From Alphaproteobacteria bacterium (GTDB lineage: Bacteria > Pseudomonadota > Alphaproteobacteria > ATCC43930 > CGMCC-115725): a stretch of DNA of 41,379 bases. Within the stretch, counting starts at the first letter, position 1, and each line of letters opens with the position of its first letter. Both the position numbers and the translations under genes were made by a program. This document shows positions 27,726-40,176 of the stretch, in pieces. The DNA is taken from the NCBI GenBank assembly GCA_018971215.1, contig JAGXBG010000001.1:1-41379 (forward strand). The letters run 5' to 3'. The notes beneath the pieces were generated by a model. The model did not search any database and had not been told where the DNA came from. It worked only from the letters and a program-made list of their open reading frames with translations.

Positions 27726-28823
27726 TTAGCCGTCTTCGAGATGCAGCAGCAGGCTGACGCCGACGAGCCAAGAAATGCCCGCCGGCGTCCAAGCCGCGAG
27801 CAGGGTGGGAATGGTCGCAGACAGGCCAAGGGCAAATACGACGTCGGAGAGGAAATAAAGAAGGAAGCCGCTGGCGATGCCGACGGCGATCATCAGCGTC
27901 GCGCCGCCGGCGCGCTGCATCCGCAGGCTGAAACTGGCGGCGATCAGAACCATGGCCGCGAGCAACAGAGGCCGCGCGAGCAGCGTATCGAAATACAGTT
28001 GATGACGCTGCGACGAGAAGCCGGACGCTTCGAGCAAGCGGATGAAGCCGGGCAGTTCCCAGAACGACATGGTTTCAGGCGGCGCGAAGCTGTCCTGGAT
28101 CTTGGCCGGAGTCAGGTTGGTGGGAATTTCCATCTCGGCGAATTGCTGCGGCTGCTTGTCGGGCGACCAATCGGTGCCGTCGCGCACCGTCCATACGCCC
28201 GATCCGAGCGTCGCCTGCTGCGCGTCGATCCGGCGCTCAAGGCGCGTGTCGTGCGCCAGGAACAGGAACATGACGTCGTGTAGAGCGCGCTGCGGCAATG
28301 TAAATCGTTCGGCGTGAACGATCGACGGATTGCCCTGGGTGTCGCTCTGGCGCAGCCAAAGCCCGGTGCTCGAAAGCGCGAATTGCGGGTTGCCGCCTTG
28401 CAGCACGCGGTTTTGCAACGTCTCGTAGCGGGCCTGGGTGACGGATGCGATCGGGTTGAACAACGTGACCGAGACAACGCCGATTAAAAATGCGCCCGCC
28501 AGTGGCGGCGCGACGAACTGCCAAGCCGAGATCCCGGAGGCGCGCGCCACGACAAGTTCATGGCTGCGTGTCAGGCGCCAGAACACCATCATCGTGCCGA
28601 ACAGGACCGCAAAGGGCAGGATCTGCTGCGCCATATAGGGTTGTTTGAGCAAGGCAAGCTTGAGCAGCACCAGCAACGTGACGTCGGCCTTGGTGCCGGC
28701 GCGCCGGATCAGCTCGACATAGTCGAGCATGAATACGATCGCCGTCATCGTCAGGAAGACGCCGGAGAACCAGATGAAGAACTGGCGCGCGATATAGCGG
28801 AACAGCGTCTTCCAGGGCGACAT
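27726..28823 (-). CDS. lptG: LPS export ABC transporter permease LptG
   Basis: 365 aa from ATG 28823 (MSPWKTLFRYIARQFFIWFSGVF...). YjgP/YjgQ-family layout of three TM helices, a periplasmic domain and three more TM helices. Starts 5 nt after the lptF stop and ends 4 nt before the lptD start. Confidence 0.9.
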   Translation of the reverse strand: MSPWKTLFRYIARQFFIWFSGVFLTMTAIVFMLDYVELIRRAGTKADVTLLVLLKLALLKQPYMAQQILPFAVLFGTMMVFWRLTRSHELVVARASGISAWQFVAPPLAGAFLIGVVSVTLFNPIASVTQARYETLQNRVLQGGNPQFALSSTGLWLRQSDTQGNPSIVHAERFTLPQRALHDVMFLFLAHDTRLERRIDAQQATLGSGVWTVRDGTDWSPDKQPQQFAEMEIPTNLTPAKIQDSFAPPETMSFWELPGFIRLLEASGFSSQRHQLYFDTLLARPLLLAAMVLIAASFSLRMQRAGGATLMIAVGIASGFLLYFLSDVVFALGLSATIPTLLAAWTPAGISWLVGVSLLLHLEDG

Positions 28824-28828
28824 GATGG

Positions 28829-29932
28829 CTACGGCGCCGCGCGCCGCGCAAGGAACGCCACCGGCGGCCGGCCGGCGGCAGAACGCCAGCACATCCACAG
28901 CACCAAGATGAACGGCCCGATGGCGTTGACGTAGATGAGGGGGATGACGGTCAAGGTGCTGCGCGCAAGATTCGTCAGACCGACGTCGACGATCTCGATC
29001 GCCAGCGCCGTCGCGATGGCGATGAGAATGCGGCGCGCCTGGCCGCGGCGATTGAACTCGCCGGGCAACAGGCACAGAATCGGAATGGCCGCCATCGACA
29101 ACGCCGTCAACGGACCGGCGAGCCGCATGTTGAGCTCGACCACCAGCGCCTGGTTGTTAAGGTTGTCCAGCAGCTCGCCCAGATAGAGCTCGTCGGGCTG
29201 ACGGTCGCGCAGCGTCGGCGCATTCTGCATCTCTGACAGATCGAGCGTATAGCTCTTGAATGACAGCGACGACAACTTGCCGGTGAGGTGGTCGAACTGT
29301 TGGCGCGTTCCGTTCACCATCAGAATGCGCGGACCCTCGGGTGTGTCGACGAGGGCGCCACGCTCGGCGGTTATGGTGATGGGCTTGTCCTTGTCGCTGG
29401 TGTTTTCGATCAGCAGACCGAGGAGGTCGCCTTTGGAATCCCGCTGTCTGACATAGACCATCAACGTATCCGACAGCGTGTTGAACACGCCTTCTTGGAT
29501 CAGGGCGGTGGCGAATTTGTTGCGGATCTCAAACTGCAGGTCCTTGAACGCGCGATTGGATGCCGGCAGGAAATAGAACGCCATGACGTAAAGCGTGACC
29601 ATGCCGGCGGCGCCGACCATCAGCGCAGGCTTGGCGAGCGCCCACTGGCTCATTCCCGACGCGCGCATGACGACGAGCTCGCTTTCGGCGATCAGCTTGG
29701 CATAGATGAAGACGATCGCGGTGAAGACCGCGATCGGCAGCACGACGTCGACGAAGCGCGGCAGGATCAGCACCGCGAGATAAAGAAAGAGCCCGATCGA
29801 GAGTCCACGATTAACGATCAAGTCGACGAGGCGCAGCGATTGCAAAAGCCACACCGCCGCACTGAAGATGACGCCGACCGAAAGCGTCACCATCAGGGCC
29901 TGGCGGAACACGTACCACGTCAGCCGATCCAT
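28829..29932 (-). CDS. lptF: LPS export ABC transporter permease LptF
   Basis: 367 aa. MDRLTWYVFRQALMVTLSVGVIF..., YjgP/YjgQ family, first gene of the lptF-lptG-lptD string. Confidence 0.9.
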   Translation of the reverse strand: MDRLTWYVFRQALMVTLSVGVIFSAAVWLLQSLRLVDLIVNRGLSIGLFLYLAVLILPRFVDVVLPIAVFTAIVFIYAKLIAESELVVMRASGMSQWALAKPALMVGAAGMVTLYVMAFYFLPASNRAFKDLQFEIRNKFATALIQEGVFNTLSDTLMVYVRQRDSKGDLLGLLIENTSDKDKPITITAERGALVDTPEGPRILMVNGTRQQFDHLTGKLSSLSFKSYTLDLSEMQNAPTLRDRQPDELYLGELLDNLNNQALVVELNMRLAGPLTALSMAAIPILCLLPGEFNRRGQARRILIAIATALAIEIVDVGLTNLARSTLTVIPLIYVNAIGPFILVLWMCWRSAAGRPPVAFLARRAAP

Positions 29933-29940
29933 GACGCGCG

Positions 29941-29946
29941 ATTATA
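29941..29946 (-). promoter_or_regulatory. Perfect TATAAT -10 hexamer 8 nt upstream of the lptF ATG (possible leaderless transcript)
   Basis: The minus strand reads CACC-TATAAT-CGCGCGTC-ATG. There is no purine-rich Shine-Dalgarno sequence between the hexamer and the ATG, and no good -35 element. Confidence 0.3.
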
Positions 29947-30106
29947 GGTGTGGCGCGTCTTCCGCCATAGCGGAATTGCCGCCGCCGGCGTGGTGAACCT
30001 GGCGATTCGTTCGTTGGGTGAAGCGGCTTGCGAGCCGACCAGCGGCGTGGAAATCTCCCAGCGCGCGGCGAATGGAGATGCGGTGTCGGATCGAGGGGGG
30101 ATTGAT

Positions 30107-31627
30107 TTGGCGGATTTGCCGTTCCGCGTCTTCGCCGCATTGTTCGTGGCGCTGCTGTTGGTCGCCTGCATTCCGCTGCTGCTGACACCGCTGCCGCCGC
30201 TGGTCGACTATCCGAACCATCTTGCGCGCATGCACCTGCTCGCCGGGCTGAGCCGCTCGCCGACGCTGCGGCAATACTATGCCTTGGCCTGGCGGCCGCT
30301 GCCCGATCTGGCGATGGACGCGCTGGTGCCGCCGCTGCTCGCCGTGGTGTCGCTGCAAACCGCCGGCAAGCTGTTTCTCGTGGCGACTTATTTTTTGCCG
30401 ACTGGCGGCGTGGCCGTGCTCCATCGGGTGCTGAACGGACGCTGGTCGGCGTGGTCGCTGACGGCATTCCTGCTGATCTACAACCGGCTGCTGTTGTGGG
30501 GCTTCGTCAATTTTCTCTTCGGCCTCGGCCTGGCGTTCTGGGCGCTCGCCGGCTGGATCGCATGGCGCGAGCGCGACATCGCGTGGCGTCTGGGTTTCGG
30601 CCTGATCGCCGCGCTGGCGATCTATTTCGCGCATCTGATGGCGTTCGGCATCTACGGTGCGATGGTCGCAGGCTACGAGGCGGGCCGGCTGTGGCGCGTC
30701 CGCGCCGCGCCGGCCGTTGCCGTCGGCACCATGCTCGTCGCGTTCTTGCCGTTCCTGCCGAGCTTGGCGTTGTTCGCCGTCGAATTCGTGCCGCTGCATG
30801 CGGCGACGAGCATCGGCTCCGGCATCCGTTTCGCCCGGCCGGTGCGCAAACTCGACCTGCCGTTCAGCATCTTCGATCTTTACAACCGTCCGTTCGACAT
30901 CGCCTGCTTCGCCCTCATGGTGATCGGCGCGGCGTTCGCCTATTGGCGGCGGTGGCTGCGCGTCACGCCGGTGGCGGCCGCGCCGCTGATCGTTCTTGCG
31001 CTGCTTTATGTTTTCATGCCCGACACGCTGTTCGGCGCAACCGGTGCCGATCGCCGGATGCCGCTGGCGGTCGTCTTGCTGCTGATCGGTGGCAGCGCCT
31101 GGCAGGCACCGTTTGCGCGCGTGGGGCGGTTCTTCCTGCCTGCGGCTTTTGTCCTTTTCGCGTTGCGCCTCGGCGTCGTTGCCGCGACGTGGCAGGCCGG
31201 CGGACGGCTCTATGCCGATTTGCTTACCGGCCTCAACACGTTGCCGGCCGGCGCGCGCGTCGCCGTCGCCTTCGCGGATGCCGAAGTCAATGTCGAGGCG
31301 GCGCCGCTGCTCCATTTCCCCGTTCTCGCGATTGCGCGCCGCGATGCCTTTGTGCCGACCTTGTTTGCCTACGCGACGCAGCAACCGGTCACGTTCACGC
31401 ATGAATACGGCGCGGTCGCCGACCAGCTCTCGGCCGATGCGCTGTGGCGTTTCTATGTCGCCGGCGGCACGAAGCTGCCGCCGGAGGTCGCACAGGCGCT
31501 GGCGCATTGCCGCTACATTACCTTCGCTGGCCGGTGGCCGTTTGTGGTACGCGCTGGCAGCGGTCTGCAACCGGTTTTCATCTCACCGCGCTTCCAGATC
31601 TACCGCCTGCCCGGGGCATCGACGTGA
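30107..31627 (+). CDS. Uncharacterised polytopic inner-membrane protein with C-terminal soluble domain (GT-C-like architecture), protein A
   Basis: G/C-biased third positions throughout. By eye, about 9-11 hydrophobic helices followed by a non-hydrophobic C-terminal domain of about 150 aa. The first loop is PPLVDYPNHLARMHLLAG. Start is uncertain: TTG 30107 (preceded by GAGGGGGG, just before TM1) is preferred, GTG 30083 or GTG 29948 (the longest ORF) are possible, and no in-frame ATG is available. Confidence 0.7.
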   Translation: MADLPFRVFAALFVALLLVACIPLLLTPLPPLVDYPNHLARMHLLAGLSRSPTLRQYYALAWRPLPDLAMDALVPPLLAVVSLQTAGKLFLVATYFLPTGGVAVLHRVLNGRWSAWSLTAFLLIYNRLLLWGFVNFLFGLGLAFWALAGWIAWRERDIAWRLGFGLIAALAIYFAHLMAFGIYGAMVAGYEAGRLWRVRAAPAVAVGTMLVAFLPFLPSLALFAVEFVPLHAATSIGSGIRFARPVRKLDLPFSIFDLYNRPFDIACFALMVIGAAFAYWRRWLRVTPVAAAPLIVLALLYVFMPDTLFGATGADRRMPLAVVLLLIGGSAWQAPFARVGRFFLPAAFVLFALRLGVVAATWQAGGRLYADLLTGLNTLPAGARVAVAFADAEVNVEAAPLLHFPVLAIARRDAFVPTLFAYATQQPVTFTHEYGAVADQLSADALWRFYVAGGTKLPPEVAQALAHCRYITFAGRWPFVVRAGSGLQPVFISPRFQIYRLPGAST

Positions 31628-33468
31628 TGGCGCTGTTGGTGCCGAGCCTCGCCCAGCTTGCGGGCTGGGCGGCGGTCGGTTTTGCGGCGCTGATGTTCAT
31701 CGGCCTTGGCCGGCTGGTGAGCCGGGGCAGGGCGCTGCCCGAGATCGCCCTGATTGCGGGATGGGGCGTGGCGTGCTGGATCCTTACGATCTGGGGCGTC
31801 GCGCTGCCGATTTCGCTGCGCGTGCCGGCCATCGCCCTGACCGCGGCCGGTCTTATTGGTTTGATCCAGCCGCGCAGTCGCCTGACGGCGGCGGATTGGC
31901 GGGCGCTGGGTCGCGTCCTGCTTCTGTCGTTGCCGTTGCTCGCGGTGATGGTTTCGGCGCGCCCGAGCCAGCCTGATACCTTTCTCAATCTTCTGCCCAA
32001 TGCAGCCTACCTTTACGACCACGGCTTGTTTCCGGCCGCTGGCCGGCCGGCGGCGCATTCGCTGTTGCCGGCCGCGCCCTACAACCTGCAATTCGTGGCG
32101 CTGATCGCCGGCCTGGTGACGCCACAATTCCCGTTCGTGGCATTGATCGCCTTCAACGTCGCGTTGCAGCTCGCCGCCGGATTGCTGCTCGCGCGCCTGG
32201 TTGCCGACAGCGACGATCGGGCGGAACCGCCCGGTTGGAGCGTCGTCGCCTTCGGCCTGCTGTTGGCCACGGCGCTCAATCCCGGTTTCGTGCCGCGTTA
32301 TCACCTGTCGGGATACAGCGAGCCATCGGTGACCGTGGTGCTCGCGATCGCGGGGTATCTCGCCTTGCGGCGCGATCGTATGTCGGTCTGGCTGTTGGCG
32401 GCTGCGCTCGCCGCGTTGGTCGAGATCAAGCAGGACAGCGTCGCGTTGGCGCTTGGCATCATGCTCGCGGCGTCGGCGCAGCCGCCGGACGTTGGCGGCA
32501 GCGGCGGTGTGGTCGTGCGACGTGCGGTCATGGCCGCGATCCCGGCTGGCGTGCTGTATGCCGCGTGGACCTGGTACGTGCACGCGCAGTTTGCCAGCTC
32601 CGACGTCGAGCTGACGTGGATGCCGCTGGCGCAGTGGCAGTGGCACATGTTGCCGATGGTCTTGCGCCAGATCGCGCGCATCGTCGCCGAGAAGGTCGTT
32701 TTCTTCGGACCGCTCCTTGCCGTGCTGATCGCGTTTATCGTTCGCGCTTGTCGCCGCGCGCCGCTGGCTGCGCCTGGCCAGCGCACCGGCCTGACATTGC
32801 TGGTCGTCACATTGGTCTATAACGCTGCGCTGCTCGTCAGCTACATCGGGCATTTCAGCGGCCAAATGGCCGCCGACGCGCACTCGTTCTTCCGCTACAA
32901 CACGCACCTCACGCTGTTGTTGATGGTGACGCTGGTGCTGATGCTGCGCGCGCCGGCGCGTGCGTGGTTTACGGGCCTGACGCTGCGCAGGCGGCAATGG
33001 CTGGGCGGGCTCGCAATCGCCGTTTTCATCGGCTGCCCGGTGGTGTTCTTGCATTTCCTGCGCTTCGATCTCGAGACGCCGCAACTGCGTGCCTGGGATT
33101 TGGCGAAACATCTCGCCGCCGCCGTCGGGCCGGACGACCGCGTCGCACTTATCCTGCCAGGCGATGGTGGCAGCCTGTTTCCCGTCCTCGAAGGCCTGGT
33201 GCGGATGACGCCACCGCGCCGGCCCAACCTTGTTCTCGACGACCTGCCGACGCTGGCGTCGGACACGTTCGCCAAACTTACCGCCAACCGATGGGCGTTG
33301 ATCTCATGCACGCCATCCGGCATGGCGGGCGTTCCCGAAGGCGAGGCAGCGCTCTTCGCGCACGGTACCAACGGCTGGACGCTTGTCGATCAGTGGCGAT
33401 ATCCGCCGGCGGATGACGGACATTGGTCGCGGGTAATCGCCCTGGCACCGCTCTGTCTGCCCGGTTGA
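31627..33468 (+). CDS. Uncharacterised polytopic inner-membrane protein with C-terminal soluble domain (GT-C-like architecture), protein B
   Basis: 613 aa from ATG 31627, which overlaps the TGA of protein A (GTGATGG). By eye, about 12-14 hydrophobic helices. Loop SQPDTFLNLLPNAAYLYDHG. C-terminal soluble domain of about 130 aa. The upstream part of the tracked ORF (31444-31626) overlaps protein A and is Arg-rich. Confidence 0.7.
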   Translation: MALLVPSLAQLAGWAAVGFAALMFIGLGRLVSRGRALPEIALIAGWGVACWILTIWGVALPISLRVPAIALTAAGLIGLIQPRSRLTAADWRALGRVLLLSLPLLAVMVSARPSQPDTFLNLLPNAAYLYDHGLFPAAGRPAAHSLLPAAPYNLQFVALIAGLVTPQFPFVALIAFNVALQLAAGLLLARLVADSDDRAEPPGWSVVAFGLLLATALNPGFVPRYHLSGYSEPSVTVVLAIAGYLALRRDRMSVWLLAAALAALVEIKQDSVALALGIMLAASAQPPDVGGSGGVVVRRAVMAAIPAGVLYAAWTWYVHAQFASSDVELTWMPLAQWQWHMLPMVLRQIARIVAEKVVFFGPLLAVLIAFIVRACRRAPLAAPGQRTGLTLLVVTLVYNAALLVSYIGHFSGQMAADAHSFFRYNTHLTLLLMVTLVLMLRAPARAWFTGLTLRRRQWLGGLAIAVFIGCPVVFLHFLRFDLETPQLRAWDLAKHLAAAVGPDDRVALILPGDGGSLFPVLEGLVRMTPPRRPNLVLDDLPTLASDTFAKLTANRWALISCTPSGMAGVPEGEAALFAHGTNGWTLVDQWRYPPADDGHWSRVIALAPLCLPG

Positions 33469-33473
33469 GCGGG

Positions 33474-33503
33474 TTGACACTGCAGCGATTTCAACGCTCT
33501 ATC
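33474..33503 (+). promoter_or_regulatory. Promoter candidate for pepA-holC
   Basis: Perfect -35 TTGACA (33474-33479), 6 nt after the protein B stop. Only a weak -10 (CTCTAT/TCTATC at 17-18 nt spacing). Confidence 0.3.
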
Positions 33504-33534
33504 GCTGTTTCGCCGTTTGCATCGAGGATCGGCT

Positions 33535-35031
33535 ATGAAAATCAAATTCGTGCCGCCGCGCTTACCCCGAACGGGAACGCTCGTGCTTTTCGTCGGCGAG
33601 GGGCGGAAATTGTCGCCGCAAGCCACGCAGCTCGATCGTCGCAGCGGCAAGGCGTTAACCCGCGCGTTGGGCGCGTCGCGTTTCAAGGGCAAGGCGGAAG
33701 AGACGCTGGCGATTTTGGCGCCGGCCAAGCTCGGCGTGGCGCGCGTTCTGTTGGTGGGGACCGGCAAGGCCGACCCCGCCGATCGGGCGCTGTGGCAGCA
33801 TTGTGGCGGCGTTATTCTGGCGGCGCTCAATGGTGCGGGCGAGAGCGAAGCGGCGGTGTTGGTCGAAGCCGGAGATCGTGCGGCCGAGATCGCGGCGCAT
33901 GTCGCTTACGGTGCGCGCCTGCGCTCCTATCGTTTCGACAAGTACCGCACCAAGGAAAAGTCCGAACAGAAGCCGTCGCTCAAAACATTGTCGATCCTGG
34001 TCGACGACGTCGCCGCCGCGCGCCGCCGTTTTGCACCGCTCGACAAGATTGCCGACGGCGTGTTCTTCACCCGCGACCTGGTTTCCGAACCGGCCAACGT
34101 GATCTATCCCGAGACGCTCGCCGACCGCGCCAAGGAGCTGACCGAACTCGGCGTTACGGTCGAGATCCTCGACGAGAAGAAGATGGCGGCGCTTGGCATG
34201 GGGGCGCTGCTCGGCGTCGGACAGGGCAGCGCCCGCCCGCCGCGGCTGCTGGTCATGCAGTGGCATGGCGCCGACGACAAAAAGCAGGCGCCGGTTGCGT
34301 TCGTCGGCAAGGGGATCACCTTCGACACCGGTGGCATCTCGATCAAGCCGTCCGCCGGCATGGAAGACATGAAGTGGGATATGGGCGGCGCCGGCGCCGT
34401 GATCGGCCTGATGACGGCCTTGGCTGGACGCAAGGCCAAGGTCAACGTCGTCGGCGTCGGCGCGTTGGCCGAGAACATGCCCTCGGGCACCGCGCAGCGG
34501 CCGGGCGACATCGTCAAATCGATGTCCGGCCAGACCATCGAGGTGCTCAATACCGACGCCGAAGGGCGCTTGGTGCTGGCGGATGCGCTTTGGTACTGCC
34601 AGGACCGCTTCAAGCCGCGGGCGATGATCGACCTCGCGACGCTAACCGGCGCGATCATCATCGCGCTCGGCCACGAGCATGCCGGTCTCTATAGCAACGA
34701 CGACAAGCTCGCCGAACAGCTTGCCGCCGCGGGCAAGGCGACGGGCGAGACGCTGTGGCGCATGCCGTTGGGCGACGCCTACAACAAGATGATGGACAGC
34801 GACGCGGCCGATGTGAAGAACATCAGCGGTGGCCGCGATGCCGGCAGCGTCACCGCCGCGACCTTCCTCGAACGCTTCGTCAACAAAGTGCCGTGGGCGC
34901 ATCTCGACATCGCCGGCACGGCGTGGGCGACCAAGGACAAGCCGACTGCGCCGAAAGGCGCCACCGGTTTCGGCGTGCGCCTGTTGAACCGGTTCGTCCG
35001 CGACAATTACGAGACCCGCGACGGCAAGTGA
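33535..35031 (+). CDS. pepA: Leucyl aminopeptidase (M17)
   Basis: 498 aa from ATG 33535 (MKIKFVPPRL..., RBS GAGGA). M17 signature NTDAEGRLVLADAL, plus VGKGITFDTGGISIKP. Confidence 0.95.
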   Translation: MKIKFVPPRLPRTGTLVLFVGEGRKLSPQATQLDRRSGKALTRALGASRFKGKAEETLAILAPAKLGVARVLLVGTGKADPADRALWQHCGGVILAALNGAGESEAAVLVEAGDRAAEIAAHVAYGARLRSYRFDKYRTKEKSEQKPSLKTLSILVDDVAAARRRFAPLDKIADGVFFTRDLVSEPANVIYPETLADRAKELTELGVTVEILDEKKMAALGMGALLGVGQGSARPPRLLVMQWHGADDKKQAPVAFVGKGITFDTGGISIKPSAGMEDMKWDMGGAGAVIGLMTALAGRKAKVNVVGVGALAENMPSGTAQRPGDIVKSMSGQTIEVLNTDAEGRLVLADALWYCQDRFKPRAMIDLATLTGAIIIALGHEHAGLYSNDDKLAEQLAAAGKATGETLWRMPLGDAYNKMMDSDAADVKNISGGRDAGSVTAATFLERFVNKVPWAHLDIAGTAWATKDKPTAPKGATGFGVRLLNRFVRDNYETRDGK

Positions 35032-36097: not shown

Positions 36098-37231
36098 CTA
36101 TAGCGCGACCGCCGGATTTTGCAAACCCCTGTGCGGCCGCGTCAGTGCCGCACCCAGCGCCAACGCATAGAACGGCAGCCACCAGAGCTGGTAGTTGTGG
36201 TGGGCGGTCGGTGCCGCCAGGATGACCGCTAAGGTCAAGGCCGCGGCCAGCGCCGAGCGCGCGGTCAGGTCCGGTGTGCGCCGCCAGACATGGACGGCGA
36301 CCGCCAGCGCGAACGCGACGACGATCGAGCGTGCAGCCACCGCGGCGCCTTCCGGCGCAAAGGCCAGCCAGCTCGTGCTGTCGGGCGGGCGGATGGCGTT
36401 GAACAGGACGATGTTGTCATAGAACGCGCCGGGTGCGGCAAGGGCGTACGGCAGGATCGGCAATAGACCGACAGCGATGCCCAAGGCATAGCGCAGCCGC
36501 GCGCCGTTGCCGGGCGGCAATAGGCAGGGCACGAACGCTACGCCCGGAAACAGCTTGGCGGCGATCGACAGGCCGATGCACAGGCCGGAGAGAAAAGCGC
36601 CGCGTTCGAAAGCGACGAATGCGAGAAGCAACGGAACGATCGCGGCGAGATCGGTCGTACCTTTGGCGAACAATTGCTGTGCCACAAGCGGCAGCGACAG
36701 GTAGAGCGCAGTGGCGATGACGCCCGCGGCGCGCGATCCGGCACGCCGGCCGAGGTGCAGCATCAGTGCGACCGCCGCTGCCTGGAGTAGTAGATTGGTG
36801 ATCAGGACGCCGCGCGCGCCGAACGTCAGGCCGAGCGGCAGATAGACCACCGGCATCACGGGCAGATATTTGTAGCCGGCGAAGGCGCCGCCCAACTCGC
36901 GATCGATCGGCAGCACGTAGGGGTTCTGTCCAGCCAACATCGCATGGCCGGCGGCAAGCGTCGTCGTCGCCATGTCGATCAGACGCGGGTGAATCAACCG
37001 CGTTGCACCATAGATCAGCTCGGCCGCCGCCAACGCGACGACGAGCGCGATCACGATCCGCGATGAATTTATCGCCGCAACGGGTCGGCGCAACGTTCGC
37101 AGCATGACGGGTACTGCGGCAAGCAGGGCGAGCAGCGCCAGGGCCTTCCACGGACCGGCTTCGTCCCAGTTGAAGATCTGGACCAGGCCGACGGCCAGCC
37201 AGAACGCCACCGCGGCGACCACACGCGCCAC
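36098..37231 (-). CDS. Polytopic membrane protein, DUF2029/GT87-like (GT-C glycosyltransferase candidate), protein C
   Basis: 377 aa, with roughly 10 or more hydrophobic helices. Loop DMATTTLAAGHAMLAGQNPYVLPIDRELGGAFAGYKYLPVMPVVYLPL resembles the D...G.NpY...Y.P signature of DUF2029/PimE-type polyprenol-phosphate-sugar transferases. The GTG start lies 2 nt after the purN stop. Confidence 0.65.
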   Translation of the reverse strand: MARVVAAVAFWLAVGLVQIFNWDEAGPWKALALLALLAAVPVMLRTLRRPVAAINSSRIVIALVVALAAAELIYGATRLIHPRLIDMATTTLAAGHAMLAGQNPYVLPIDRELGGAFAGYKYLPVMPVVYLPLGLTFGARGVLITNLLLQAAAVALMLHLGRRAGSRAAGVIATALYLSLPLVAQQLFAKGTTDLAAIVPLLLAFVAFERGAFLSGLCIGLSIAAKLFPGVAFVPCLLPPGNGARLRYALGIAVGLLPILPYALAAPGAFYDNIVLFNAIRPPDSTSWLAFAPEGAAVAARSIVVAFALAVAVHVWRRTPDLTARSALAAALTLAVILAAPTAHHNYQLWWLPFYALALGAALTRPHRGLQNPAVAL

Positions 37232-39000: not shown

Positions 39001-40176
39001 ATGAAAGCGCCCGCCCGGGCGGCCGCGGTTTGGCTCGCCGGCTTCTGCAGCTTCCTCGACCTGTACGCGCCGCAATCGATTCTGCCGATGATCCGCGACC
39101 TTTATGGGGTCGATGCGGTCGTGGCCAGTCACATGATCAGCTCCACTACCGTGGCGGTCGCGATCATCGCGCCGTTCACCGGCGCCGGCGCCGACCTGAT
39201 TGGTCGCAAACGCGTGATCGTCACCGCGATGGTCGCCTTGATCGTCCCGACGGTAATGATCGCACTGTCGACGACGCTGCCGGCCATGGTGTTCTGGCGC
39301 TTCGTCCAGGGCCTGTTGTTGCCGCCGATCTTTGTCGTCACCGTCGCCTATATCGGCGACGAGGTGCCCATTGCCGAGGCGACAGGTGTCGCCGGCATCT
39401 ACCTGTCGGGCAGCTGCTTCGGCGGCTTCTTCGGCCGCTTCCTGTGCGGCATCCTGGTCGAGCCCTATGGCATCCGTGGCGCGTTCCTGGGCCTTGCCGC
39501 CTTGACCGCGGTTGCCGCAGTCGGCGTCATGGCGTTGATGCCGCGCGAACGCCAGTTCGTGCCGAGCGCCGGCCCGGCACACGCGTTGCGCCACATTCTC
39601 GCGCACGTCTTCGATCCGCAACTCGACGCCATCTTCGCTGTTGGTTTCGGCGTGCTGTTCTCGTTCGTCGCCACCTTCACCTATGTGAATTTCCATCTCG
39701 CCGCGCCGCCGTTCGATCTATCGGCGGCGGCGCTTGGCACAATCTTCCTCGTCTATCTCGTCGGCGTCACGACGACGCCGCTGGCCGGGCGGCTGGTACG
39801 GCGCTTCGGCCGTCGGCGTCTGGTGCTTGGCGTTCTCGGTATTTGGATTTGCGGCCTGTTGCTGACGTTGACTGGCAGCCTGTGGGTCATCGTCGCCGGA
39901 CTGGCGGTCGGCGCCGGTTGCGGCTTCATCGTGCAGACCGCGGCGACGGCGTCAGTTGCGGTCTCGGCACAACGCGCGCGCTCGTCAGCGGTCGGTCTCT
40001 ATGTCACCTGCTACTACGTTGGCGGCAGTATCGGCGCGGTGCTGCCGGGCTATGCATGGAATCGCGCTGGCTGGCCGGGATGCGTCGCTATCGTCATCGC
40101 GATGCTGGTGCTGTTGGCGGCGATCGTGCTGCGCTTCTGGCGCGAGCGGCCGGCTCAGGCGAGACCCGAGCGGTAA
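39001..40176 (+). CDS. MFS transporter
   Basis: 391 aa with about 12 hydrophobic helices. MFS loop motif [12 protein letters not shown] between TM2 and TM3. Divergent from purM. Confidence 0.85.

Follow-up and report, generated by a model that had tools for sequence, protein, structure and literature searches.

The DNA analysed here (41,379 nucleotides in full, hereafter the window) raises the question of what two large membrane proteins are doing between genes for LPS export and a leucyl aminopeptidase. In E. coli, pepA lies directly beside lptF in divergent orientation, whereas in the window gene A (30107-31627, + strand, 506 aa) and gene B (31627-33468, + strand, 613 aa) are placed between the divergent lptF and pepA. 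This is consistent with the insertion into a conserved junction that the original prediction had proposed, and both of the long coding ORFs it described were found and are conserved. In Stellaceae, the same junction holds A alone, A-B, or A-B followed by a gene for a GT2-GtrA fusion.

Gene content of the lptF/pepA junction

Upstream lie the LPS export permease genes lptG (about 27726-28805, - strand; NCBIfam LptG, 293 bits, cut-off 240) and lptF (28829-29932, - strand; NCBIfam LptF, 227.4 bits, just below the cut-off of 230), and this region (27726-29932, - strand) also gives Pfam LptF_LptG matches at 210 and 250 bits. Downstream, pepA (33517-35031, + strand; leucyl aminopeptidase) probably starts at ATG 33535, 67 nt after gene B, and is followed by holC and ndk. 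The predicted third GT-C-like gene nearby lies at 36098-37231 (- strand) and is a borderline GT87/DUF2029-like case (Pfam GT87, 25.3 bits versus a cut-off of 25); it keeps synteny with ndk and purN, and a homologue is present in L001, L003, L004, L008, L010, L011, L015, L019 and L074.

The maximal ORF of gene A spans 29948-31627, the 506-aa version starting at TTG 30107 behind a Shine-Dalgarno-like GAGGGGGG at 30093-30100. An alternative in-frame start, GTG 30083, would give 514 aa, which is the length of a homologue (P0002) that is 92% identical. Gene B starts at ATG 31627, within the sequence GTGATGG (31624-31630, + strand) in which the TGA of gene A overlaps the ATG of gene B (ATGA, 4 nt). 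The overlap, read correctly at the outset, should give translational coupling, and it recurs at 9 separate places, covered by 10 related locus entries (L001 and L007 being one contig); 4 more entries have a 1-nt overlap. A and B are genuine, conserved genes: they have 717 and 427 homologues, respectively, a mean column identity of 58-59% in 60-sequence alignments, and a GC3 of 0.79-0.82. The named homologues are all annotated as 'hypothetical protein' and come mostly from Stellaceae soil MAGs. Promoters presumably lie in the intergenic stretch (29933-30106) from which lptF and gene A diverge; no match to the sigma-70 consensus, and hence no promoter position, was found in it, nor was a terminator-like site found between gene B and pepA.

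Predicted fold, topology and conserved residues

At the sequence level, neither A nor B has a Pfam, NCBIfam or PDB match or any tie to a curated GT-C family, and the two show no detectable homology to one another; the searches likewise returned no transporter or other non-transferase family for either. The AlphaFold2 models (A: pLDDT 90.5, pTM 0.91; B: pLDDT 90.5, pTM 0.92) nevertheless predict that both are GT-C-fold glycosyltransferases. In Foldseek, the 17 best PDB matches of A consist entirely of GT-C enzymes: ArnT (5f15; E 1.8e-5, TM 0.55) comes first, followed by STT3, ALG12, AftD, ALG9, PglB, AftB and Pmt4. Emb is also among the matches of A. The structural match of B is weaker, with AftA (8if8) modestly on top (E 3.6e-4, TM 0.44) and ArnT second (E 5.5e-3, TM 0.40), but its matches with a TM of at least 0.3 are again GT-C enzymes only (AftA, ArnT, STT3, AftB, AftD). 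The GT-C-type reading is thus backed by the sole structurally meaningful matches of both models.

Secondary structure of the models and hydropathy give 11 TM helices in A and 14 in B (inside the ranges of 9-11 and 12-14 estimated by eye), with three extra N-terminal helices preceding an 11-TM core in B. Each protein ends in an alpha/beta domain of ~140 aa (A residues ~363-506, B residues ~475-613), in line with the expected 130-150 aa; these domains match nothing known. Topology was assigned by positive-inside statistics across the alignments of A and B, as N-in, C-out for A and N-out, C-out for B: the short loops of A hold 13.0 K+R per 50 residues inside versus 1.8 per 16 outside, and those of B 18.4 per 82 inside versus 3.1 per 41 outside. 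By this bias, D34 of A, D117, R423 and D481 of B and the two C-terminal domains face the periplasm, the orientation originally proposed for the Asp loops and the C-terminal domains.

The Asp residues of these loops proved to be invariant in homologues. In A, D34 is part of a DYPNHLAR loop after TM1 that is at least 95% conserved across 79 loci; these span several phyla, and Nitrospira, Bryobacteraceae and Thermodesulfobacteriota are represented among them. In B, D117 lies in the loop after TM4 and is, like R423 and D481, invariant in 66 members of the B family, down to 23% identity. D34 and D117 are candidate equivalents of the catalytic residues of ArnT or PglB by topological position only. 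C561 and C610 in the C-terminal domain of B, invariant among close relatives, would fit a periplasmic disulfide. The 'aromatic-Arg-x-Pro' ending is present in both sequences but is not a conserved common motif, since the consensus of A ends in PRFQLYRV (without Pro) and that of B in W-x-Y-P-P-P (without Arg).

Genomic context and alternative readings

The two genes co-occur elsewhere, as had been expected: B adjoins A in 54 of the 71 informative GTDB loci (the B genes of the retrieved loci having been located via A), in two gene orders, 33 co-directional and 21 convergent, and A-A and B-B distances correlate with r = 0.95 (50 loci). In the other 17 loci A lacks B, which shows that A can occur outside the pair. 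As for the donor, a GT2+GtrA_DPMS_TM fusion adjoins A/B-family genes in 15-17 loci, forming A-B-GT2GtrA at the same lptF/pepA junction in L030, L051 and L059. These synthases resemble ArnC, AglJ, PpgS and PgfS, below the curated cut-offs. Behind the A homologue of L079, a Bryobacteraceae locus, come genes for a decaprenyl-phosphate phosphoribosyltransferase (275 bits, cut-off 234), a HAD hydrolase and a PMT_2 GT-C; this corresponds to the pentofuranose variant of the same lipid-linked logic, which PMC11127046 describes. In the window itself, neither tblastn nor the gene inventory shows a GT2 synthase or a GtrA gene. Since paralogous modules lie beside genes of the polyprenyl-phosphate-sugar-synthase type, the gene neighbourhood supports a lipid-linked (polyprenyl-phosphate) sugar as the donor, as was initially suggested.

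It therefore seems probable to us that A and B are a periplasm-facing GT-C pair that together carry out the transfer step of an extracytoplasmic glycosylation pathway with three components (Gtr/Arn-like), most likely on LPS. In 11 convergent pairs, the gene directly upstream of the paralogous B belongs to the GT9 heptosyltransferase family (a GT4 lies further upstream in L062, L066 and L076), GT9 enzymes being typically inner-core enzymes, and the orthologous pair, divergent from lptFG in 27 species, adjoins these genes and not a polysaccharide cluster. On such circumstantial grounds, we favour LPS core or lipid A as the likeliest acceptor, although the adjacency to lptFG may be mere inherited gene order; synteny is just as strong for pepA, ndk and purN. 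Neither point is decisive against a reading that we hold to be a good deal less likely but still a serious contender, in which the same GT-C/polyprenyl-P-sugar enzymology acts on O-polysaccharide, capsule, an exopolysaccharide side branch (cf. Gtr* and GT136) or another periplasmic glycan. In fact, the GT4-GT9-B operon of L062 includes a Wzy_C (O-antigen-ligase-like) gene, and P0041, a paralogue of A that stands alone in L002, is part of a cluster of O-polysaccharide or capsule type (GT2, ABC exporter, RMNT_CmcI-type methyltransferase, GT61, Wzy_C, UDP-GlcNAc 2-epimerase), which suggests polysaccharide, in place of core, among the acceptors of the family. Most known three-component systems, too, act on O-antigens or wall polysaccharides (PMC11127046). 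Of the envelope-glycoconjugate module originally envisaged, the two periplasm-facing GT-C transferases are thus supported, while LPS or lipid A as the acceptor stays circumstantial; nothing ties the locus to mannose or to Bradyrhizobium-type lipid A, a link already called speculative when it was made.

The division of labour within the pair could also be different, with A as the sole catalyst and B as a non-catalytic GT-C-like helper (scaffold, acceptor-binding subunit or lipid-carrier handler). The GT2-GtrA fusion flanks A alone in L034, L047, L057 and L061, the B genes of the retrieved loci were found through A, and the weaker structural match and additional N-terminal helices of B would suit such a role; we nevertheless consider it improbable, as the invariant periplasmic acidic and basic residues of B form an active-site pattern, and as distant B homologues have a synthase-type gene of their own (a 310-aa GT2 comes next), with a neighbour in L083 that is not an A-family protein. 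Very unlikely, finally, is the glycosylation of periplasmic or outer-membrane proteins, as by the GT-C enzymes PMT, TMEM260 or oligosaccharyltransferase. The structural matches do include STT3 and PglB, A and B share a soluble periplasmic C-terminal domain with the oligosaccharyltransferases, and 1 of the 66 B-family members gives a weak TMEM260-like Pfam match (E 0.0096); but the C-terminal domains fall far below the size of oligosaccharyltransferase periplasmic domains, the genes nearby are of the LPS or polysaccharide kind, and the neighbourhoods showed no conserved genes for candidate substrates or for protein glycosylation.

Proposed mechanism and comparison with known systems

In the preferred reading, a GT2-type synthase, which in related loci forms a fusion with a GtrA/DPMS-type membrane domain and is here presumably encoded outside the window, would work at the cytoplasmic face and transfer a sugar from a nucleotide sugar to undecaprenyl (polyprenyl) phosphate, after which the lipid-linked sugar would be flipped into the periplasmic leaflet. 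A would accept it through a cavity formed by the first periplasmic loop, with D34 of DYPNHLAR as the putative catalytic or metal-binding acid and the conserved R41, K248, R317 and other basic residues as candidate phosphate binders. B would take the lipid-linked sugar through an equivalent loop (D117, with R423 and D481) and either add the next residue or work at a second site. The likeliest acceptor would be LPS (lipid A or inner core) in the outer leaflet of the inner membrane, prior to extraction by LptB2FGC.

A and B are accordingly best described, on the strength of their models, as two predicted new GT-C families, unnamed in any database, within the known logic of three-component periplasmic glycosylation. 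Like the GtrA/GtrB/Gtr* systems of Shigella and Salmonella phages, GmlABC, and undP-Ribf with the founding GT136 (PMC11127046), related A/B loci combine a polyprenyl-phosphate-sugar synthase (GT2 or UbiA-type) with a GtrA-type membrane component and a polytopic GT-C transferase whose active site is periplasmic. Unlike these systems, which have one GT-C protein, an A/B module has two unrelated ones, the related loci carry the GtrA-like part as a fusion with the synthase, the synthase is unlinked to the transferases in the window, and A and B lack detectable similarity to Gtr*, GT136 or any Pfam GT-C family.

ArnT (CAZy GT83; Pfam PMT_2), the 4-amino-arabinose transferase of lipid A, works with ArnC and ArnE/F, using an Und-P-sugar donor at the periplasmic face. 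Among the structural matches, it ranks first for A and second for B, and its synthase ArnC resembles the GT2-GtrA neighbour of A/B loci. A and B differ from it in lacking a PMT_2 or GT83 sequence match (13-14% identity in structural alignment), in the number of TM helices (11 in A versus 13), in their ~140-aa soluble C-terminal domains of unassigned fold family, and in their signature motifs (DYPNHLAR; PSQ-W-D-E-F in A/B). The mycobacterial enzymes, among which AftA is the best match of B while AftD, AftB and Emb are among those of A, share no sequence similarity with A/B; they are larger, carry carbohydrate-binding modules, and come from unrelated organisms with unrelated glycans (arabinogalactan, LAM). 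EmbA-EmbB, a heterodimer of two different GT-C enzymes with C-terminal periplasmic domains, nonetheless sets a precedent for a putative A-B complex. In Alphaproteobacteria, RgtA/B/C/D of Rhizobium, with RgtE, transfer galacturonosyl residues to the core and the lipid A of LPS, several periplasmic GT-C enzymes with a polyprenyl-P-sugar donor occurring in one alphaproteobacterium. Unlike A and B, the Rgt enzymes belong to the ArnT/PMT_2 family, but they are a precedent for more than one periplasmic GT-C enzyme acting on the same LPS.

Gene A, gene B and their flanks

Gene B (31627-33468, + strand) starts at an ATG and encodes 613 aa, its start codon overlapping the TGA of gene A within the sequence GTGATGG. 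Gene A lies in a maximal open reading frame of 559 aa (29948-31627, + strand), which is unlikely to be translated in full and would start just 15 nt from lptF. A start at TTG 30107, which is preceded by a Shine-Dalgarno-like G-run (GAGGGGGG), gives the 506 aa of the original prediction, while GTG 30083, in the same frame, would extend the protein to 514 aa and so to the size of its closest homologue (P0002, 92% identical); between these two codons the start of A is ambiguous. The pair is flanked by lptG and lptF (up to 29932, - strand) and by pepA, holC and ndk (from ~33535, + strand). The reading of the frames, together with Pfam/NCBIfam matches for the flanks, bears out the two long + strand ORFs, their stop/start overlap and the lptFG and pepA neighbours as originally described. 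With 717 (A) and 427 (B) database homologues, a mean column identity of 58-59% in the 60-sequence alignments of A and of B, and a GC3 of ~0.8 for each, both can be taken to be real genes.

The AT skew reaches -0.30 to -0.40 at 30001-33000 and 39001-40000 (i.e. over A, B and a downstream MFS-like gene), which is consistent with T-rich codons of hydrophobic membrane proteins on the + strand rather than with a separate feature. A scan of the A-B region for promoter and terminator consensus sequences gave matches at chance level. In the 67-nt spacer between B and pepA (33469-33534) there is a TTGACA at 33474-33479 but nothing like a terminator hairpin; transcription of B may run on into pepA-holC-ndk, or a separate promoter for pepA may lie in the spacer.

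Fold, topology and sequence families

AlphaFold2, run on family alignments, yielded confident models for both A (pLDDT 90.5, pTM 0.91) and B (pLDDT 90.5, pTM 0.92). When A was compared with the PDB by Foldseek, the 17 best matches were all GT-C enzymes, headed by ArnT (5f15, E 1.8e-5, TM 0.55) and followed by STT3, ALG12, AftD, ALG9, PglB, AftB, Pmt4, Emb and AftA, past which the TM-scores dropped to ~0.1. For B, AftA (E 3.6e-4, TM 0.44) and ArnT (E 5.5e-3, TM 0.40) were found, as well as STT3, AftB and AftD, and the matches outside GT-C, transporters included, had a TM of at most 0.17; judged by the models, B is the weaker GT-C case of the two. Both proteins have the make-up of the GT-C fold class (polytopic, with 8-14 transmembrane helices and a predicted fold like that of solved GT-C enzymes), as was originally predicted. 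Readings as a transporter, as a Wzy/WaaL-type polymerase or ligase, or as an MFS protein were rejected, such structural matches all lying at TM ≤ 0.17, and a Foldseek comparison with the viral structures of BFVD added no information.

Topology was taken from the model helices and hydropathy, after which Lys and Arg were counted in the short loops over the 60-sequence alignments. A is predicted to have 11 transmembrane helices (N-in/C-out), with 13.0 Lys+Arg per 50 cytoplasmic versus 1.8 per 16 periplasmic loop residues, and B 14 helices (N-out/C-out), with 18.4 per 82 versus 3.1 per 41; in its model, B looks like an 11-helix core preceded by three extra N-terminal helices. The first periplasmic loop of A (29-83) directly follows TM1, contains helices at 35-50 and 69-77, and carries an invariant D34. 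This residue is part of the motif DYPNHLAR, in which each residue is at least 95% conserved over 79 loci, a conservation that spans Nitrospira, Bryobacteraceae and Thermodesulfobacteriota; K248, D315 and R317 are among the other conserved periplasmic residues. In B, the loop after TM4 (110-168, with a helix at 116-132) carries D117 in the consensus PSQWDEF, and D117, R423 and D481 are invariant in 66 members at identities down to 23%. A long first extracytoplasmic loop with juxtamembrane helices and a conserved Asp or Glu, as is typical of GT-C enzymes, is thus present in both, and by their position in the models D34 and D117 would be equivalent to the catalytic residue of solved GT-C enzymes.

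All of these conserved residues, as well as the ~140-aa alpha/beta C-terminal domain of each protein, are predicted by the positive-inside rule to face the periplasm. In the C-terminal domain of B, close relatives all keep C561 and C610, as would be expected of a disulfide formed in the periplasm. The original prediction had placed the Asp loops and C-terminal domains in the periplasm and had expected the acids to be conserved: the loop statistics agree with the former (as a prediction), and the invariance of D34 and D117 with the latter. The aromatic-Arg-x-Pro motif that both C-termini were said to share had to be dropped, as it is not conserved in common by the A and B alignments.

On the level of sequence, neither A nor B matched Pfam or NCBIfam at E ≤ 0.01, and no GT-C model was reached when 60 A-family and 66 B-family members were scanned singly. 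Candidate assignments to Pfam/NCBIfam families proved to be noise (e.g. DUF6057 at E 0.18, and a TMEM260-like model at 0.0096 in one member) and were rejected, which leaves A and B outside the curated GT-C sequence families (PMT_2/PMT, i.e. GT83/GT39, GT87, STT3, AftA_N, Glyco_transf_22 and those of NCBIfam). Searches of PDB sequences with phmmer and hmmsearch (sequence and profile) were empty. Homologues, the majority of them from soil MAGs of Stellaceae or of unclassified Alphaproteobacteria, are named 'hypothetical protein' in every source. The A family comprises at least 575 stretches in GTDB (one genome per species) and the B family 722 clusters at 50% identity in an exhaustive representative search with the B profile; this search gave no bridge to any known family, because its best 150 matches were all clear B-family members. 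In the literature, the general framework was found and no publication on either family. That A and B are distant paralogues was considered and rejected, since BLASTP and hhalign (full profile, two B alignments) gave a probability of at most 8.5%, the same ceiling holding when transmembrane cores and C-terminal domains were aligned separately; ancestry shared beyond the common fold is not shown by these sequence comparisons. A and B would appear to be two new GT-C families, set apart from the curated Pfam/NCBIfam ones and forming a paired variant of a known system.

Pairing, probable donor class and possible acceptor in the light of gene context

From at least 575 stretches with a relative of A (one genome per GTDB species), 80 loci were kept and mapped by tblastn. 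A and B are co-directional in 33 of these (27 of them at the lptF junction); in 21 they lie at other genomic sites and converge tail to tail. A lacks an adjacent B in 17, and nine loci were too short for a pairing call. A thus adjoins B in 54 of the 71 informative loci, as is to be expected if, as originally proposed, the two co-occur elsewhere. Pairwise A-A and B-B distances correlate with r = 0.95 over 50 loci, to which shared phylogeny contributes, and A and B split alike between the co-directional and convergent arrangements, from which it seems that the pair was duplicated and inherited as a unit. A 4-nt stop/start overlap is found in 10 locus entries, i.e. 9 distinct places (one contig underlies both L001 and L007). 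Four further entries overlap by 1 nt, and more distant orthologues have gaps of 14-128 nt. Adjacency, correlation and overlap show genetic linkage; a physical complex of A and B, of the EmbA-EmbB or Pmt1-Pmt2 type, would go beyond it.

Pfam assigns a further polytopic protein of 377 aa, encoded between ndk and purN (36098-37231, - strand), to GT87 (DUF2029/PimE-like) at a borderline 25.3 bits against a cut-off of 25, with no NCBIfam match; the gene is syntenic in at least 9 related loci (49-82% identity) and appears to be a stable neighbour.

The view of the pair as an insertion into a conserved junction is reasonable, because pepA and lptF are direct divergent neighbours in E. coli K-12 and the junction in Stellaceae contains A, A-B or A-B-GT2GtrA (GT2GtrA denoting the fusion of a GT2 domain with a membrane domain of the GtrA/DPMS type). 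In two Stellaceae MAGs (L028 and L039) the stretch from lptF to pepA contains A and lacks B, loci L051 and L059 have A-B-GT2GtrA there, and in L030 lptF is followed by A-B-GT2GtrA up to the contig end, which implies that, within the family, genes of the module come and go at this junction.

The same fusion recurs around A and B in other arrangements. In five convergent pairs (L044, L046, L055, L056, L069) a gene divergent from B encodes it; in another two (L063, L068) a gene of this type is found 0.4-0.6 kb past the GT9 gene that precedes B. It lies downstream of B in five co-directional modules (L030, L051 and L059 among them, these three at lptF|pepA), and in L034, L047, L057 and L061 it flanks A alone; overall, a synthase-type gene is linked to a GT-C gene in 15-17 related loci. 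The GtrA_DPMS_TM domain of the fused GT2 scores 58.9-65 bits in these loci, and the fusion has, by its domains, the architecture of a polyprenyl-phosphate-sugar synthase, its nearest NCBIfam models being ArnC, AglJ, PpgS and PgfS (all under curated cut-offs). Even for GtrA itself, a role as a flippase has yet to be proven (PMC11127046). Distant B homologues have a 310-aa GT2 of the same type downstream, and in a Bryobacteraceae locus three genes come after an A homologue, for decaprenyl-phosphate phosphoribosyltransferase (275 bits against a cut-off of 234), for a HAD hydrolase and for a PMT_2 GT-C. This is the three-component scheme of PMC11127046 in its pentofuranose form. These independent gene contexts give good, though indirect, support to a lipid-linked donor class for A and B, as first suggested.

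No sugar-nucleotide biosynthesis genes were found beside the GT2GtrA-A modules. In the 41-kb window itself, no GT2 synthase gene (tblastn at 1e-6 and gene inventory) and no GtrA-family component was found; given the linkage in 15-17 related loci, we infer a three-component system in this genome as well, the synthase gene of which would lie outside the window. Locus L061 (6731-15765, from the MAG of an uncultured Rhodospirillales bacterium) has the two-gene module GT2GtrA-A and, directly after it, genes for an Omp85/POTRA protein of 582 aa and an ORF of 1457 aa, a layout resembling TamA/TamB. Proteins of 148 and 484 aa without Pfam/NCBIfam match lie beside a distant B homologue (P0340) in L083 (1557-3465); the larger was rejected as an A-family member (hhalign probability 0.1%) and may be a further unannotated membrane partner.

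As for the acceptor, LPS, and specifically lipid A or the inner core, is the leading hypothesis, favoured by the GT9-B operons and the adjacency to lptFG. A GT9 (heptosyltransferase-family) gene lies immediately upstream of B on the same strand in 11 convergent pairs, preceded by a GT4 gene in L062, L066 and L076 and accompanied by a Wzy_C O-antigen-ligase-like gene in L062, and the orthologous A-B pair is divergent beside lptFG in 27 species, an adjacency that could also be inherited synteny alone. A second A-family gene without B (P0041, 54% identical; L002 10001-11536, on the 2.2-Mb contig of L001) lies in an ABC-transporter-type polysaccharide cluster, among genes for GT2, an ABC exporter, an RMNT_CmcI methyltransferase, GT61, an LPG_synthase_TM+Wzy_C protein, UDP-GlcNAc 2-epimerase and a heparinase-II/III-like protein. 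It follows that the A family would serve more than one glycan pathway, and polysaccharide acceptors are possible within it. No Bradyrhizobium homologues occurred among the 80 loci kept, and the speculative link to mannose and Bradyrhizobium-type lipid A found no support. The periplasmic transferase module originally proposed is supported in its fold and orientation, in its conserved acids, in the co-occurrence of the two genes and in its donor class; LPS core or lipid A as the acceptor is unproven.

Relation to known glycosylation systems

The most specific reading, to which we give only a small chance, is that A and B are two new CAZy-level GT-C families forming an obligate EmbA-EmbB-like heteromer, which would decorate the lipid A-core with two sugars or at two sites on the periplasmic face, just before extraction by LptB2FGC. 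If true, Stellaceae and other Alphaproteobacteria of the soil would share a widespread step of LPS modification that had gone unrecognised. More generally, two sizeable families of hypothetical proteins gain a predicted fold and topology, with candidates for the catalytic residues, and can be placed in a donor class and, probably, in a pathway. A-B could also bring to light a hitherto unknown decoration of LPS core or lipid A in soil Alphaproteobacteria, which are abundant but for the most part uncultured. The use lies in the annotation of genomes and the envelope glycobiology of these bacteria, with two new enzyme scaffolds for glycoengineers; conceptually, the result is expected and overturns no concept.

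To our knowledge, three-component systems of Gram-negative bacteria do not usually have a conserved pair of different GT-C enzymes per module. New sequence families of GT-C enzymes continue to be established one by one; GT136, for instance, dates from 2024 (PMC11127046).

Functionally, the A-B module corresponds to the Gtr/Arn/Rgt-type three-component scheme of periplasmic glycosylation, with ArnT as the nearest structure to A and AftA as the nearest to B. It differs from the classical scheme in having two unrelated GT-C proteins, both with unclassified periplasmic C-terminal domains, in the fusion of synthase and GtrA-like domain in related loci and, in this genome, in a (presumed) synthase that is unlinked from the A-B transferases.
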